Part shown: positions 3,474 to 55,984 of the stretch, piece by piece
Layout: each line of letters begins with the position of its first letter
Numbering within the stretch: position 1 is the stretch's first letter
NCBI GenBank assembly: GCA_050575255.1
Contig: JBNZDD010013635.1
Coordinates: 2,767,670 to 2,823,653, forward strand
DNA length: 55,984 nucleotides
Origin: Harriotta raleighana
Taxonomy: Eukaryota
Direction: 5' to 3'
Program-made: the position numbers and the translations under genes
The notes under the pieces: model-generated
The model's database searches: none
What the model was told of the DNA's origin: nothing
The model's input: the letters and a program-made list of their open reading frames with translations, nothing else

Positions 3474-3592
3474 CTCCAAAGTAGAAATGGGAAAGTGGAT
3501 AGAAGACCTGAATATGGCCATTGATTTGGTGAAGAAGTCGAACGAGAAGGGAGATATGTTCCTGGAGACTAACATCTTCGATCGATCAAACA
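3474..3592 (+). CDS. FARP2: FARP2 exon (SKVEMGKWIEDLNMAIDLVKKSNEKGDMFLETNIFDRSN), PH1 C-terminal helix
   Basis: ttttgaag acceptor (phase 2), gtaagt donor (phase 1). Contains the PH helix tryptophan motif KWIEDL. Confidence 0.93.
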
Positions 3593-4070: not shown

Positions 4071-4399
4071 TAATAATATAATAATAATCCTTGCATTTGA
4101 TGTAGCGCTTTCTACATCTTATCGATGTCTCAAAGCTCATTACAGAATATACTGTAAAATGAATTGACTGTATATTTGTGGGTGAAACGAGGCAGACAAT
4201 TGCGCATAGCAGTGTCCCACAAACAGTTGTGGATTGAAATAAACAATTTTTTTTATTATTGTGGTTTTTTTGGACGGATTATTGTTAGGCATGTGGTCTA
4301 AGGAAACTTGCCCAAGGTTTCAGCCTGATCTGCCTGGATTCGAACACAGGTCTCATGCTTGTAAGGCGAGTGCTCTTACCACTGAGCTACAGGAGCTCC
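4071..4399 (-). mobile_element. Full-length tRNA-derived SINE (Deu-like core, L2-type tail; SINE2-1_CM-like)
   Basis: Reverse complement has ggagctcctgtagctcagtgg A box, gttcgaatcc B box, gtgggacactgct core and (tta)n tail. Confidence 0.9.
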
Positions 4400-4735
4400 A
4401 AACCTTCTGCACAATTTTAAATTTTTTAATGGAATGGGTACATGGCCAATCCCACATGACAATTCAAGCCTTCAATTCTGTTGTAAGGTCTGTGGTTTGA
4501 ACAGCACCTATTTGGATTTATGTCACAAGAAGCTACTTTAATTAAAGGTGCTAATTAATTACGGTGAACATTTGAGCTACGTTGCTAATTTAACATGCAA
4601 AAAAAAATGATGACCAGCACTTTGTTCTATTTGTTTGATGGATACTAACTTGACAGCACATCTCCCTTGCGTGATGCGAGAGGTCACCCACCGTGCAATT
4701 ATTTCTCTTTACGCCTCTGCCCTCGTTTTCCTCAG

Positions 4736-4899
4736 GGTCTTCAGATGAGGTGTCAGTGGAGCAGGAATCCGAAGACGACACTCACTCTTCCCGCAGCTCG
4801 TTGGACAAACAGACCCATCACCGTGCCAACACCACAATGCACGTGTGCTGGCATCGCAACACTAGTGTCTCCATGATGGACCACAGTGTTGCAGTGGAG
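4736..4899 (+). CDS. FARP2: FARP2 linker exon A (SSDEVSVEQESEDDTHSSRSSLDKQTHHRANTTMHVCWHRNTSVSMMDHSVAVE)
   Basis: cctcag acceptor, gtaccc donor, phase 1-0, 164 nt. HRANTTMHVCW is the FARP2-type motif. Confidence 0.95.
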
Positions 4900-5998
4900 G
4901 TACCCAGAGGGCACTCTCACCAGCTCCTGCACTCCATTTACCCAACGATAACCCAGGGCAAGGCACTAATACACAGAGCCTACCTGCCAAAGCTGTTTAA
5001 TATTGATTTCCAATTAGTTTGGCCAGCTATGGCATTGGTTTTCCAAACTTAAATGACAGGAGTTTTCCAAGATATCTTGCTCCTTGTACAGGCTTGATTT
5101 ATTATGTCTAAGTGGGGAGGAGAAAATTAATCTAGACTGTGATTTTTCCTGGTGCAGTCAATCGTCACCCCAGCCATTCCCTGGTTCAGTGTAGACCATT
5201 TCAACCATTTCCCAGACTTGTATACTTATGATCAATTGCATTTACAAGTGGATGGTTTGATGTCCTGGGTTATCTGGTGGAGTCAAAACACTTTTGTCTC
5301 TCCCATCACTCATTTTCCATTCTTCTTCCTTTCAAACAGGCTTCTGAAACATGTGGGATTCTCTGTGTGACACTCTCTCTTTCAGCTCACTCATCCTCTA
5401 TGTTTCCTTCCATTAATGAAAATCGCTTCTCTCCTGTATTTTTGCTTTCTTGTGCAGCCATTTTGCATCGCATTGTGACTTGGTGAACCTGGTGATCTTC
5501 CTTTTCACTGTAAAGATCTGTTGAGTGTTCGCTTCTAACTTGCTGGTGACATTGGTTGACTGCCAAAACACTTAACTGAGTACCTGATATCTTTGCGAAA
5601 GATGACATCAAACCCTGTGGTGTCTGGATACAAAGATTTTGCTGTGGTTTTGGTATCTTGGTCATTGTACATTGGTCATTTTATTGGACCTGTTGTGAAC
5701 ACAGACTTTCTCACAGAGTTCAGGGTGGTCATTCACTTGTGGAATAGATTGTGGTAATACGATTACATTGATCTCATGCCACTCATATTTGGGAGGCAGT
5801 GCTGTAGTTCAGTGAGGCATTGTCTGTGTGAATGGCCATCTTGTGACATCCCACCCTGTAACTGACTAACTGAAGAATAACGCAAATTTCAGCTACTGAC
5901 CTGTGATCCCGGTAGTTTATTCATCGCTGTCCTGTTTCTGTCTTTCTTTTTCTCTCTCTCCCCTATCTCCGTACCTGCTTACACACGGATGTGCTCAG

Positions 5999-6138
5999 TT
6001 TTCTATTCTCCTGCCACTTCCCCGGAGCTTCCTCCGCGCTACCTTCTAGGCCAGAGTCAGCGGCCTAACACCATCACCCACGTGTGCTGGTACCGCAGCC
6101 AAAATCTGTCGCTGGCTGATTACCTACGAATGATGGAG
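5999..6138 (+). CDS. FARP2: Candidate FARP2 alternative linker exon B (FYSPATSPELPPRYLLGQSQRPNTITHVCWYRSQNLSLADYLRMME), homologous to exon A
   Basis: Pyrimidine tract ~5925-5970, gctcag acceptor (second in-frame acceptor at 6049), gtaaac donor. Phase 1-0, 140 nt. RPNTITHVCWYR aligns with RANTTMHVCWHR. Confidence 0.82.
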
Positions 6139-7370: not shown

Positions 7371-7478
7371 AACCAGCTGTCTGGGTACCTGCTGAGGAAG
7401 TTCAAGAACAGCAATGGCTGGCAGAAACTCTGGGTTGTCTTCACCAACTTCTGCCTCTTCTTCTACAAGACCCACCAG
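7371..7478 (+). CDS. FARP2: FARP2 exon, PH2 start (NQLSGYLLRKFKNSNGWQKLWVVFTNFCLFFYKTHQ)
   Basis: aattag acceptor, gtacaa donor, 108 nt, phase 0-0. SGYLL and YKTHQ are FARP2-type residues. Confidence 0.96.
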
Positions 7479-20217: not shown

Positions 20218-20555
20218 CCCCCAACCCCATATAATTTCGACACTCAATTCACGACTGCTTGTGGACACTGTCCCATTTCACCCACTAAAAAATGTATTCA
20301 ATTCACTTTACAGTATACTCTATGAAGCTCTTTGAGACATCTTGAAGATGTGATAAGGCACTATATCAAATGCAGGGATTATGATTATTAATTTATCCCA
20401 AATACCTTGGAGGTGGTGCTCCTCCAACAAAGGTTAACAAACCTAGGTAGTGATTGCTGCTCCAGTGCAAAATTTCTCAAACTTTCTTATTAAGTTATCC
20501 TTTTTATCTTTATCCTTCGCAGCAACCCTTCAAAGCAAGTTCTCCATCGTGAGCC

Positions 20556-20975
20556 ATGAAGAGGCTACCTTACAAGGGCTACCTCTTCGCTCTCCTTCTC
20601 GTAACCTGCATTGTGCTTTATTTGCAAAGTACATTCATCCACTGTTTCCTACAAAGATGCTATTTGAAAGATAAATACGACGTGGATTTTGATTACTCAA
20701 GTTTAATCACAAAGCCCGGGATCATGTTTGTGGAGACTACAAATGAGATGGAGCCGTTACCGCTGGCTGCATGTGGCGTGGAATCGGCTGCTCGGGAAAA
20801 TCCAGATAAACCTGTTTATTACTTTATGAAGGGATTCAGCGGGAATTTATCACAATATCTATACCCGCAGTATGTCGCCACCCCCATTCTTTCGTCAATC
20901 AAGAACGTTGTATTGGTACCCCTAAGGCTCAAGGCATTGTTTCAAAACACCCCTTTGAGTTCCTGGTATCAACAG
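20556..20975 (+). CDS. A4GNT: Alpha-1,4-N-acetylglucosaminyltransferase (GT32), coding exon 1 (140 codons)
   Basis: gagccATG after an acceptor at 20522. Type II TM segment YLFALLLVTCIVLYL. Motifs GIMFVET, CGVESAA, TPLSSWYQQ, then gtaata donor at the intron position recalled for A4GNT. Confidence 0.9.
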
Positions 20976-21679
20976 GTAATAGTCACAGAGTTCAGAACCT
21001 TAATATCAAATGGCTCCTTCGGCTGGAAATGTATATATAGTAATAACTTTTAACACAATTTATGTACGTGTTAACATTGATTTTGTTGTCAGTAACTACG
21101 TCATCATTCTCTGGGACTCCTTTCCTTTACCCTTCCAACTTGTCATCTCTCTTATCTGTCTGTAAATACTCCCAAAAACCTACCACTTTGACTGTTTCTC
21201 TACTCTGTTCCTCGGATTTATTTCTGTTTTTGTGAAGCAGAGACGTTGTCCTATTTGAAGGGCACTGTAAAATATACCACAAAATATGCAGTCAAATCTC
21301 TTTGCAGTATATTCTGTGGTGCTTTGAGATGTCTCGAAGACATGATAAGGCATAATGATTGTTATTTGTCATTATTATTTAAAAGCAAGTTGTTGATATC
21401 TTTGTTTTAGACTCACCGGGTGGATGTATATATATCCTTAATGAAGCAAATCCCAAGAACTCACAATAATAACCGTGTGCAGTTGGAAACTTTCCTGAGT
21501 TTTGAGGGTTTTTAAACTAGCATTTTTGTTATTCCCTTTTCTTGCCCATCAAACCTCCCCGACACCTCTGTTCCTGAAGATGTTGCACCATGGTGTCTAG
21601 TTAAAAAACAGCATTGGGTCCTTGCTTAAAATAAATATATAATTTTATATAGTGATAGAATGACTCCAAAGGGTCTATA

Positions 21680-21847
21680 TTCCTGGTCAACCATCCTTCA
21701 GATGAAATTGGTCATTCACTTCAAGGCTGTTTTGTAGGGCATTGCTCTGTGCAAATTGGCTGCTGTGATGGCTTACAAAATACACAGTCAATCTATTTTA
21801 CTACAAATCCTGTGAAATGCTTTGAGATGTCCTCCCAGCGTAAAAGA
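21680..21847 (+). mobile_element. Old DeuSINE 3' half, split from its tail (~22265-22310) by a CR1 insertion
   Basis: tcctggtcaa..gtgcaaattggctgctg..tgtgaaatgctttgagatgtcc. Tail atgcgagaattattattatt resumes after the CR1. Confidence 0.65.
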
Positions 21848-22265
21848 TAAGAACATAAGAATTAGGAGCAGGAGTACGTCTTTCGGCCCCTCGAGCCTGC
21901 CCCGCCATTCAATAAGATCATGGCTGATCTTCTGACCTAACTCTAATTACCTGCCCTATCCCCATATCCCCTAATCCCTCTATTTTTCAAAAATCTATCA
22001 GTCTCAGCCTTGAAAATGTTCAAGAACTGAGTATCCACAGCCTTCTACCTTCTGAGTGAAGAAATATTTCCTTAACTCTGTTCTAAAGGGCTGACCCTTA
22101 ATTTTAAGATGGTGACACCTGGTTATAGATTCTCCTACCAGGAGAAACAGTCCCTCAGTGTCTACTTTATCCAGCCCTTTAAGAATCGTATATGATCTTC
22201 AATAAGATCCTCCCTAATTCTTTTGTACTCTAGAGAATACAGCCCTAGTTTATTCAACCTATCAT
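21848..22265 (-). mobile_element. CR1 LINE 3' fragment in the A4GNT intron
   Basis: taagaacataagaattaggagcagg..cattcaataagatcatggctgatct tail. Same family as 48395-48540. Confidence 0.88.
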
Positions 22266-22350
22266 GCTAGATGCGAGAATTATTATTATTAATTAGGATT
22301 ATTATTTTATTGGTAAATAATATTGCTTTGTTCTGTCCATTACAATGCAG

Positions 22351-22950
22351 GTAAATCCATATCGCCAAAAATACTGGGTTCATGTGCTCTCTGATGCCTG
22401 CAGGTTAGCGCTTCTGTGGAAATACGGTGGCATCTACCTGGATACAGATATTATATCCCTAAAGCCTTTGCATTTCACAAACTTCATCTGCGCGGAAGGA
22501 TACATGACTGCCAATGGTGCGGCCCTCGGATTTCAGGATCACCATCAATTCACGTGGGACTCCATGGAAGACTACGTCACCAAATACAATGGACAGGCCT
22601 GGGGGCATCAAGGCCCACACCTGATCAGCCGCGTGTTGAAACGGTGGTGTCAGTCCGACAAACTTGGCGAATTTCTTGACTTGCAATGCAATGGCGTTTC
22701 GTACTTGTCACCCAGGAATTTCTATCCAATCAAATACACCGGGTGGCAGCGGTTCTTTGAGCCCTGGAGTAAGAACAATATGGAATCCTTTTTCTCGGAT
22801 ACAAAAGGGGTGCACATCTGGAACTTCAAAAACGTAGGACAACGGAAACAAGTGGTTGCAGGAAGTGGGACATTAATAGAGAATTTGTTTTTAAAGTATT
22901 GTCCGACCACCTATATGGTTCTTGTGAAAAGTAGCCGCTTTATGCAATAA
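22351..22950 (+). CDS. A4GNT: A4GNT coding exon 2 (199 codons + stop), catalytic domain
   Basis: tgcag acceptor, phase 0. SDACRLALLWKYGGIYLDTD (DXD), WGHQGP, FYPI, HIWN and CPTTY motifs. Spliced product is 339 aa with no disruption. Confidence 0.92.
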   Translation, partial: VNPYRQKYWVHVLSDACRLALLWKYGGIYLDTDIISLKPLHFTNFICAEGYMTANGAALGFQDHHQFTWDSMEDYVTKYNGQAWGHQGPHLISRVLKRWCQSDKLGEFLDLQCNGVSYLSPRNFYPIKYTGWQRFFEPWSKNNMESFFSDTKGVHIWNFKNVGQRKQVVAGSGTLIENLFLKYCPTTYMVLVKSSRFMQ

Positions 22951-24200: not shown

Positions 24201-25137
24201 AGACATGTGACAGCTTCAGCACATTGTAACGGAGTCTAGGTGAAGAGGAGTAAGTAAGTAGATTACAACATCCTGTTCTTCTGAACAGGTTCGAGTCTTG
24301 TTTCCCTTCCTTGTTACAGACGGTTCATGATGAGATTTCATCGATAGTTAAGCTGCTCTAAGCCGCAAATTGGTTTGATACAATTTTGACGAACAGTCTG
24401 GTCACAGGACAGATGGTAAGCATTTGCGATGAAATATAATAATCTCAGGACAATTTACTACTCCACCCCCCCGCATCCCCTCACCATGATAATTAGAATG
24501 TGAGTGCAGCTGGTAAAAAAAATAAACAATGTGAACCTTGTTGCGGAGTAAACGGCTGACTGACTGTGTAATACTCATAATTAACTGAAAACTATGTTTA
24601 GTTGGGAAACGACATTTTGTGTACATTATTCATGGAGCGCCTGCAAGAAAAGCAGCTGCGATTCCACTTGGGGAATTCTGATCCTCGCATAAAGGATGGA
24701 TTAAGGTGATGTATCACTTTGTGTAATTGCTTTGGGGGTTAAAGTGCAAAAATTGTAGAGACAATGTTCCTATCTAAAACTCCTCTCGCAATTCAAGTGC
24801 TACTTTCATTCTGTTCCACTGTAATTACAGTATGTTTATGTGACACAGAAATGTTATAGAATACTCCACACTGTGTAATATGGTTCTGAGCTCTACGAGA
24901 CAGGAAAGTTTGATCCCTGCTCTGACTTGGTAAACATTGTAAGCTCCAGTGGGTAAGCAGAGGCGTGAATAGGTGATGGAAATGAATCTAGATTCCCATT
25001 CTTAATCGCTGTCCAATGATACTGGGCAGAAAATTAATACTGTATCATTGAACCATGTAAATTCACAGCACAGAATAAGGTCATTTGGCCCCTCTTGTCT
25101 GTGTTCTGCCCATCATCCCTCAAAGAGCAATCCTTTC

Positions 25138-25833
25138 AATCTCATTAAAGGTAGCAGGGCAGGTAGATAAGGCAGTAAAAAAGGCATTTGGTGTACTGAG
25201 CTTTATTAGTAGGGGCATAGAGTTTAAGAGTAGGGAAGTTATGCTTAATTTGTACAAAACACTGGTTAGGCCTCAGCTGGAGTACTGCATCCAGTTCTGG
25301 GCACCTTACTACAGGAAGGACATTAAGGCACTGGAAAGGGTGCAGAGGCGATTCACAAGAATGATTCCAGGAATGGGGAACCTTAGCTATGAGGACAGGC
25401 TGGAGAAGTTAGGACTTTTCCCATTAGAGCAGAGAAGATTATGCGGGGGACCTGATAAAGGTCTTCAAGATCATGAAAGGTTTCGACAGGCTAGATAGGG
25501 AAAAGCTGTTTCCACTGGTAGGTGTGTCTGTGACCCGAGGTCACAGACTTAAGATATCTACCCAAAAGAAGCAGACGGGAGATTAGAAGAAATGTTTTCA
25601 CTCAGAGAGTTGTTCGAATTTGGAATGATCTACCTGAAAGGGTAGCGAGGTCCGATTCGATAGCAGCTTTTAAGAGAGAACTGGATAGGTATCTGGGGAA
25701 GACGGGCTTGCAGGGTTATGGGGAGAAAGCTGGTGTTTGGGGTTAATAAAAGTGACATTGCTCTGTCAGAGAGTCAGCACAGACTCGATGGGCCGAATGG
25801 CCTCCTTCTGTGCCGGAACCTTCTATGATTCTA
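25138..25833 (+). mobile_element. CR1 LINE 3' fragment (RT C-terminus and tail), nested in an older opposite-strand CR1 tail
   Basis: LYKTLVRPQLEYCIQFWAP...LERVQRRFTRMIPG with a frameshift. Ends ttctatgattcta. Confidence 0.93.
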
Positions 25834-26770: not shown

Positions 26771-27034
26771 GAAAGAGCTGAATTTTAATCGGCAGAAAGG
26801 CAAGTTAAATAGAGAGAAAAATGTTCAATGAGTGTTAAGCTGCTGTGAGCTATAAATGATGTAAATGTAGCAAGTTTACATCTTGGAGGACATGTTCAAA
26901 TGAAGGCACCTTGAACAAGTTCAGGGAGATTATGAATATGTGCCTTAGTATTTTCAGTGTAGCAGAACAAGCAGGTTCATGTTCAGGGCTGCAAATAGCA
27001 ATTTCAGGACAGACACCAAGACTGTTAAAGTCTA

Positions 27035-27631
27035 AGGCTGTCAAAAAAGTATACAGGTCACTAGGCATAGAGTACAAAAGTCAGGAAGTTCTGACTAACC
27101 TGTATAAAACTTTGGTTAGGCTTCAGCTAATTCTGTTCAATTCTGGTCACCACACTTTAGGAAGGATGTCAAGGCATTGGAAAGGGTGCAGAGGAGATTT
27201 ATTAGGATGGTACCAGGAATGAGGGACTTTAGAGGAAAGGCTAGAGAAGCTAGGTTTATTCTCATTGGAACAGAGAAGGTTACGAGGAGACCTAATAGAG
27301 GTTTTCAAGATCATGAGGGGATTTGATAGGGTAAACTGGGGAAAACTGTTTCCACTGGTGGGTGTGTCAGTGACCTGAGGTCACAGATTTAAAATAGTTT
27401 CTGAAAGAAGCAGAGGGGAGATGAGGAGAATTTTTTTCTCTCAGCGAGTTGTTCGAATCTGGAATGCATTGGTAGTGGAGGCTGATTCGATAACAACTTT
27501 TAAAAGAGAGATAGATGTTTATTTGGGGAGGACGGGTTTGCGCGATTTTGAGGAGACAGCTGGGGAGTAGGATTGAGAAGAATCGGCACAGACTCGATGG
27601 GCCGAATGGCCTCCTTTGATTCTATGATTCT
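27035..27631 (+). mobile_element. CR1 LINE 3' fragment
   Basis: GIEYKSQEVLTNLYKTLVR. Collinear with 25138-25833. Tail gattctatgattcta. Confidence 0.92.
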
Positions 27632-55391: not shown

Positions 55392-55645
55392 ATATGCATG
55401 TGAGAGATGAGGAAAGACTATTACTATTGTAGCTGATCAAGATTGGTAGCCTCATGATACAAGGATTTAAGACCAAAACTTTGACAAGGATGTACACTCC
55501 AACTCACTGAGCCAGTATGGAAGCTTGGCATCATGTTTGACCCGCAAGTGTCATTTCTACCCCACATGCATGCTATGACCTTCTCTGCCTTCCACCACCT
55601 CCGCATCTTCATCTGGCTCTGCAACTGTCTCACATTGCAGGCCGC

Positions 55646-55984
55646 GGAGACCCTTATCTCAAGGACACCACTTGCCCTATCCCCCTACTCCTCTGGCTCC
55701 TTCCCCTCGTTTGAGCACCTCACCCTTTCCCACCCCTCCCATCTCTCACTCAAAATCCTCCTCCTCTACCGGCCCCCCAAAACTTCTCCCACCTTCATCT
55801 CTGACATCTCTACCCTCCTGACATGTCTCTGCCTCTGCACTGATCGCCTCATCATCCTGGGCGACTTCAACCTGCACTTCACCCCCTCCTGCTCCACCTC
55901 CTCTGACTTTTCCTCCCTCCTCTCCTCGCTCAAACTCTCCCTCCACATCAACTCCGCCACTCATGTCCACGGCCACCCACTCGA
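55646..55984 (+). mobile_element. L2 LINE ORF2 endonuclease (APE) fragment running off the window
   Basis: SFEHL..KILLLYRPPK..FISD..LIILGDFNLH motifs with a frameshift. Confidence 0.88.

Follow-up and report, generated by a model that had tools for sequence, protein, structure and literature searches.

A proline-rich tag in alternative exon B of FARP2 from Harriotta raleighana, a candidate docking site in the linker between the PH domains

The window analysed here, a stretch of 55,984 nucleotides from Harriotta raleighana, carries the 3' end of FARP2. The PH1-PH2 linker of this gene contains a mutually exclusive pair of exons, A and B, which are homologous and of equal phase, and the 5' part of exon B encodes a Pro-rich segment (FYSPATSPELPPRYLL), which is coding according to its third-position substitution pattern. 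It is fairly probable that exon B is spliced from the acceptor at 5998, that its SPELPPRY tag provides isoform B with a docking site of its own (WW domains of NEDD4-family ligases being the likeliest partners), and that an AG at 6048-49 within the exon goes unused. The finding is modest, as exon B is already present in automatic annotation and such motif matches are common; a description of FARP2 isoform B was not found in the searchable literature (subscription papers and bioRxiv supplements lying outside its scope). The coordinates of the features are summarized in Table 1.

Table 1. Features of the FARP2 linker region and of its FARP1 counterpart (positions in the window unless a locus is named)
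Feature	Position	Strand	Remarks
Constitutive exon 5' of the pair (PH1 end, linker start)	3474..3592	+	phase-1 donor ending in A; record 6 of X2 shows splicing to exon A
Exon A	4736..4899	+	164 nt, phase 1 to 0; acidic tract and HVCW core
Intron end before exon B	5862..5996	+	branch-point-like words, long pyrimidine tract; putative function
Acceptor AG of exon B	5997..5998	+	same CAG in loci L006 and L007; record 11 of X2 ends at 5999
Exon B	5999..6138	+	140 nt, phase 1 to 0; 3' part homologous to exon A
S-P-A-T-S-P	6007..6024	+	SP codons at 6007 and 6019
P-E-L-P-P-R (P-x-x-P-x-R, 6022-6039) overlapping P-P-R-Y (P-P-x-Y, 6031-6042)	6022..6042	+	predicted disordered linker
Site equivalent to the in-frame +27 acceptor of tetrapod annotations (CCA GAG)	6024..6025	+	window has CCG GAG, so no AG
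In-frame AG of the preliminary description	6048..6049	+	not conserved; no use found
Constitutive exon 3' of the pair (PH2 start)	7371..7478	+	
Last coding FARP2 exon, with stop codon	9065..9146	+	
Decayed exon B-like stretch, FARP1 intron after exon A	L014:8241-8306 (G000:C13720:9097240-9097305)	-	in-frame stop; GAG/GT donor at matching position

Gene context and the exon pair

A protein search with exon B yielded 159 matches, the best 120 of which were 78-93% identical and, where named, nearly all FARP2. In a C-terminal tree of 22 rows and 227 residues, the bootstrap of which was not fully settled, the window clustered with three sharks (support 96/92), in line with a cartilaginous fish as the likely source. 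The counts given below refer to 169 B-type protein rows from the best 120 of 159 and the best 120 of 454 matches, sorted by hand into clades from their names; each row represents a cluster (the members of 21 clusters were read as well), and the rows are non-independent, with many isoforms per species and a dominance of teleosts.

Exons A and B both follow the phase-1 donor at 3592 and both end in phase 0. The two are 43% identical over 23 residues, a match that is restricted to their 3' halves and weak genome-wide (E 1.7); exon B compared with the exon A part of the solved FARP2 chain gave an E value of 0.0023, and exon A itself matched the solved DH-PH-PH chains of both FARP1 and FARP2. The acidic tract attributed to exon A in the preliminary description is present and reads SSDEVSVEQESEDD. 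The reading frame is kept by A alone or B alone and broken by inclusion of both or skipping of both. The resulting early stops lie 349 nt (A+B) and 147 nt (double skipping) before the last junction, so that both kinds of transcript would be targets of nonsense-mediated decay and would be cleared by it. Isoforms with A only and with B only are annotated side by side in zebrafish, gecko and Monodelphis. An in-frame A+B joint via other acceptors occurred in 22 of the 169 listed rows, which are unverified gene models. Two phase-0 AGs of the window (6026-6027 and 6053-6054) could join A to B in frame, and their equivalents are used by the gene predictions P0019, P0031, P0001, P0121 and P0122; transcript support for A-to-B joints at these AGs was not seen in the contigs and proteins examined. 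Steric exclusion between A and B was ruled out by the 1,099-nt intron that separates them and by the branch-point-like words near B.

The acceptor of exon B is preceded by an 81-nt AG-free zone. An ACTAAC word (within 5862-5900) is found approximately 134 nt before exon B and approximately 130 nt before it in locus L006; it may be a distant branch point or a QKI-type site.

Tandem-duplicated exons such as SNAP25 5a/5b (PMC8373072, PMC9741552, PMC5740500) resemble the FARP2 pair in being neighbouring and homologous, in sharing a phase, in the frame shift caused by double inclusion and in their vertebrate-wide age. The FARP2 copies differ from them in being of unequal length (164 and 140 nt) and in sharing only the 3' half, while their non-homologous 5' parts exchange an acidic tract for a Pro-rich tag.

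Regarding transcript-type evidence from relatives, seven runs contained 15-31% of 13 sampled words; four were compared, all as contigs, the RNA status of one of them (X2) being a guess. Record 11 of contig X2 has 165 letters and covers exactly 5999-6138 with nine differences (about 94% identity) at a depth of 4.6; its other 25 letters are presumably the start of the next exon, judging from the geometry of the contig. Depths of 1.35 and 2.42 in the two bins over exon B correspond to exon-only cover at 4.6, and the flanking intron bins were zero. Record 6 is spliced and joins the upstream exon to exon A. In X1, the exon A piece had a depth of 92.5 and B was found only within an unspliced piece, whereas in X2 the depths were 3.9 for A and 4.6 for B; the contrast hints at tissue regulation of the pair and is not counted here, because contig depth cannot rank exons. 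A high-copy repeat (4078-4400), located between the upstream exon and exon A, had very high contig depth in 4/4 runs.

Downstream of FARP2 and on the same strand lies an alpha-1,4-glycosyltransferase gene (20553-22947; Gb3_synth PF04572 match with an E value of 1e-40, frame 22321-22944). Decayed LINE-like coding fragments, which are presumably CR1-like, occupy 25079-25760, 26860-27567 and 55485-55982; the last of these matches an endonuclease-reverse transcriptase family below the family cut-off.

Sequence and conservation of the Pro-rich tag

Positions 5999-6049 translate as (A+TT = I)-F-Y-S-P-A-T-S-P-E-L-P-P-R-Y-L-L, the A being supplied by the upstream exon. The two SP pairs, PELPPR and PPRY are present as the preliminary description had them, and the latter two match the class II SH3 consensus PxxPxR and the WW consensus [L/P]PxY, respectively. 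Of 20,000 post hoc shuffles of 6001-6048, 1.3% contained PPxY, 1.9% contained PxxPxR and 0.025% contained both; an [ST]P pair turned up in 46%, so the SP pairs alone say little. In zebrafish, isoform B has no PPxY other than that of the tag, and isoform A lacks the motif altogether.

Two orthologous DNA loci were compared, one with a teleost-type peptide (L006) and one with a bird-type peptide (L007), neither of them from a cartilaginous fish. Differences at codon positions 1/2/3 within the 16 Pro-rich codons were 1/2/9 against L006 and 2/3/8 against L007, with synonymous changes in seven of the 16 codons against each locus; the corresponding values for the 3' 30 codons of exon B were 4/2/16 and 4/3/15, whereas the 50 intron bases 5' of the exon were 28% and 40% identical (ungapped). 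The codon pattern rules out that the Pro-rich part is today merely a translated pyrimidine tract. The preliminary description had held that sole use of an acceptor at 6049, or missing codon-level conservation, would speak against its reading; neither was found, because exon B is real, its Pro-rich part is conserved at codon level and 5998 is the acceptor used.

The segment occurs in RefSeq isoforms from sharks to marsupials, including bony fish, birds, reptiles and a salamander, and the upstream exon is joined straight to the start of the long form in RefSeq isoforms and in the assembly-derived proteins P0033 and P0111. Predicted FARP2 isoforms with exon B include XP_073810206.1 (zebrafish), XP_043557644.1 (bamboo shark), XP_062438237.1 (rhea) and XP_056664582.1 (opossum). 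Their exon B starts from the long acceptor or from one 27 nt downstream (+27); they are automatic models without functional description, and none starts at the 6049 position.

Among the listed rows with the segment, PPxY was found in 100/101 from teleosts, 25/25 from birds, 4/4 from lizards, 3/3 from sturgeon and bichir, 2/2 from axolotl, 1/2 from marsupials, 1/7 from turtles, 0/3 from carpet sharks and 19/19 unnamed. It is replaced by PLHY in carpet sharks (3/3 listed), by SPHY in turtle sequence, by PPRS in Trichosurus and by PPRF in Limanda; Gracilinanus, beyond the clade count, keeps PPxY and has PxxPxR as PEFPPR. Regarding the listed long forms, PxxPxR was present in teleosts (99/99), birds (13/13), lizards (2/2) and sturgeon and bichir (3/3), and was lost by an R-to-H change in sharks (0/3) and in the single long row of a turtle (0/1). 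The tyrosine of the tag is present in 158/164 listed rows, and Y-L-L-G-Q is mostly kept where PPxY has been lost.

The two SP pairs, proposed earlier as kinase sites, fared differently. The first was found in 97/99 listed long forms of teleosts, 0/13 of birds, 0/2 of lizards and 0/3 of sharks, is lacking in the turtle, and among the listed rows is kept solely in ray-finned fish and in the genome of the window; it is lineage-restricted. The second belongs to S-x-x-x-S-P-E, which is conserved in nearly all long forms listed (teleosts 99/99, birds 13/13, sharks 3/3) and has a spacing suited to primed GSK3 sites. Judged from these rows, the tag is old and under selection, yet it has undergone repeated decay, and the closest named relatives are among the lineages affected. 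The 3' core of the exon (RPNTITHVCWYR) varies less than the tag.

The +27 acceptor, CCA GAG, is present in both L006 and L007; it is unusable in the genome of the window because CCG GAG contains no AG. The +27 form accounts for 20/169 listed rows, from birds, lizards, turtles, axolotl and marsupials, and is the sole B form listed for axolotl, Monodelphis and Trichosurus. It has K/Q-L-P-P directly after the upstream exon, lacks the two SP pairs and the leading Pro of PxxPxR, so that PxxPxR is absent from all 20 rows, and retains PPxY. The three linker versions that had been envisaged are thus annotated in tetrapods, but by way of this acceptor, which keeps PPxY and is absent here.

Candidate docking function and competing readings

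In the favoured reading, the choice of exon B would swap the acidic tract of exon A for the Pro-rich SPELPPRY tag, which would recruit WW domains of NEDD4-family ligases specifically to isoform B. Phosphorylation of the conserved S-x-x-x-S-P just upstream would tune the binding, and a WW or SH3 partner beside PH2 would alter the turnover, location or autoinhibition of the isoform. The tetrapod +27 form would be a third form, with PPxY but lacking the SP pair and the initial Pro of PxxPxR. WW docking is preferred to SH3 binding or a structural function, since both B forms retain PPxY.

In an AlphaFold model of the B form from a goby (P0170, mean pLDDT 69.5), residues 160-195, which include the tag (residues 180-189), had a pLDDT below 50 and the PH domains mostly 65-90, so that the tag is predicted to lie in a disordered loop between them; these regions are also described as unfolded in a review (PMC4704004). 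A full-length model (mean pLDDT 43.8) was too poor to read and was set aside. PH2 occludes the GTPase site in solved structures (PMC6041286). The solved autoinhibited DH-PH-PH modules of FARP2 and FARP1 (PDB 4GZU, 4H6Y) belong to the same family, and exon A matches both chains; they have the exon A linker, and exon B matches them solely in the HVCW core. According to PMC8786283, [L/P]PxY defines a main WW class and a phospho-Ser before the PPxY of connexin43 enhanced NEDD4 binding. The exon B tag is like such connexin43-type ligands in consensus, upstream Ser-Pro and predicted disorder; it differs in being brought in by exon choice, in having been lost in several lineages and in being a candidate ligand.

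Selection may act on something besides WW binding, because PPxY has been lost in places while Y-L-L-G-Q is mostly kept. The conserved function could be an SH3-type site (class II PxxPxR, or of the PxxxPR type) or a phosphotyrosine site instead of a WW ligand, which is considered unlikely. PxxPxR is found in all listed long forms of teleosts, birds, lizards, sturgeon and bichir, and in Gracilinanus as PEFPPR, and the wide retention of the tyrosine would suit phosphorylation. Src acts on FARP2. Against an SH3 ligand stand the destruction of PxxPxR in each of the listed +27 rows, the R-to-H changes in sharks and turtles, and the sequence of the motif itself, since an acidic residue inside it and a Ser before it are atypical of class II ligands.

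A similarly small probability is assigned to conservation for structure or splicing (packing of Y-L-L on the DH-PH-PH core, or exonic splicing signals), the motifs being incidental and the functional change stemming from the 3' core of exon B or from the loss of the acidic tract. The independent losses of PP or R with retention of Y-L-L-G-Q would fit this, as would the greater invariance of the 3' core and the lack of a tag in the B-like sequence assigned to FARP1. Third positions, however, are free in the tag, which argues against constraint at DNA or RNA level, and the AlphaFold model leaves the tag unstructured.

The preliminary description further proposed that an acceptor at 6049 would remove the tag. 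The AG is present: a TAG places it in frame, exactly 51 nt (17 codons) past the 5998 acceptor. In-frame internal AGs occupy 11 of 181 positions in seven exons, and that at 6048-49 is the only one of the 11 with a pyrimidine before the AG and at least 65% pyrimidines upstream, acceptors having been judged by simple features (AG, pyrimidine content) and not by splice-site scoring. Removal of the tag through this AG is not supported. The AG needs a Leu codon ending in A, and it is absent from both orthologous loci (2/2; CTT GGT in L006, CTG GGC in L007); Gly is needed at the next codon, where bichir and Salarias have Ser. The 17-codon deletion was seen in 0/169 B-type rows among the matches listed; as one search query left out the Pro-rich part, short forms would have scored equally in it. 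Record 11 of the relative's contig X2 bridges 6049 unbroken. That 6049 is nevertheless a real minor acceptor in this lineage, producing a third linker with neither motif, is held to be quite improbable: no other internal in-frame AG in the seven exons looks as good (80% pyrimidines upstream), such a linker may be tolerated in view of a Xenopus protein with a B-like core and no Pro-rich part, and cluster representatives from the best 120 of 159 and the best 120 of 454 matches could hide a short form, but the lack of the AG in both loci, the Ser residues, the lack of the deletion among the listed rows and the unbroken contig all speak against it, and the pyrimidine richness is explained by Pro, Ser and Leu codons. 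The AG probably goes unused and owes its presence to a rare Leu codon.

The Xenopus protein (P0178, KAE8604508.1, Xenopus tropicalis) comes from a gene model distantly placed in the FARP family. It shares 33-39% identity with B forms, and its linker is 18 residues shorter than that of long B. It raises the idea that the tag may have originated as the acceptor shifted upstream into a pyrimidine tract of older date.

Age, loss and significance

The FARP1 intron that follows exon A (5,077 nt) holds a decayed B-like stretch (Table 1), which outscored 194/200 shuffles when compared with exon B and 200/200 when compared with the assembly ORF P0182; its presence suggests that the duplication of A and B predates the FARP1/FARP2 split. 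The stretch resembles the ORFs P0182 and P0185-P0187. P0182 is presumably the undamaged FARP1 exon B of a different animal, and both it and the decayed stretch are without the Pro-rich tag.

Placental proteins with exon B were not among the matches listed in the exon B searches. A possum-peptide search for a placental exon B gave four candidates and three matches (two marsupials and axolotl), which is weak evidence of absence, and a profile search gave 20 matches, most of them unnamed and none a named placental protein. Exon B was likely lost in placentals, judging from these searches. Loci L008-L010 were uninformative, L009 and L010 having the look of chance matches. A rod-specific mouse Farp2 exon from ASCOT was ruled out as exon B, being 21 nt long (PMC6952364). 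The supplements of three human catalogues covering duplicated or mutually exclusive exons (PMC8373072, PMC9741552, PMC5740500) contain SNAP25 but neither FARP1 nor FARP2.

Taken further, and only tentatively, the pair could be a tissue-regulated FARP2 switch that predates the FARP1/FARP2 split and was lost in placentals, with an acidic A form, a phospho-tunable SH3 and WW long B form beside PH2 and a WW-only short B form in tetrapods. According to PMC6041286, it is an open question by what means FARP2 is released from PH2 autoinhibition, or whether it is a pseudo-GEF. A naturally occurring isoform with an altered linker into PH2 and an added candidate partner tag would allow a direct test by comparison of A and B, and the pair is a conserved set of mutually exclusive exons missing from human-centred catalogues. 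If the switch exists, work in mouse and human would have missed a route, present in zebrafish and chick, to activate or degrade FARP2, a Rho-family GEF.
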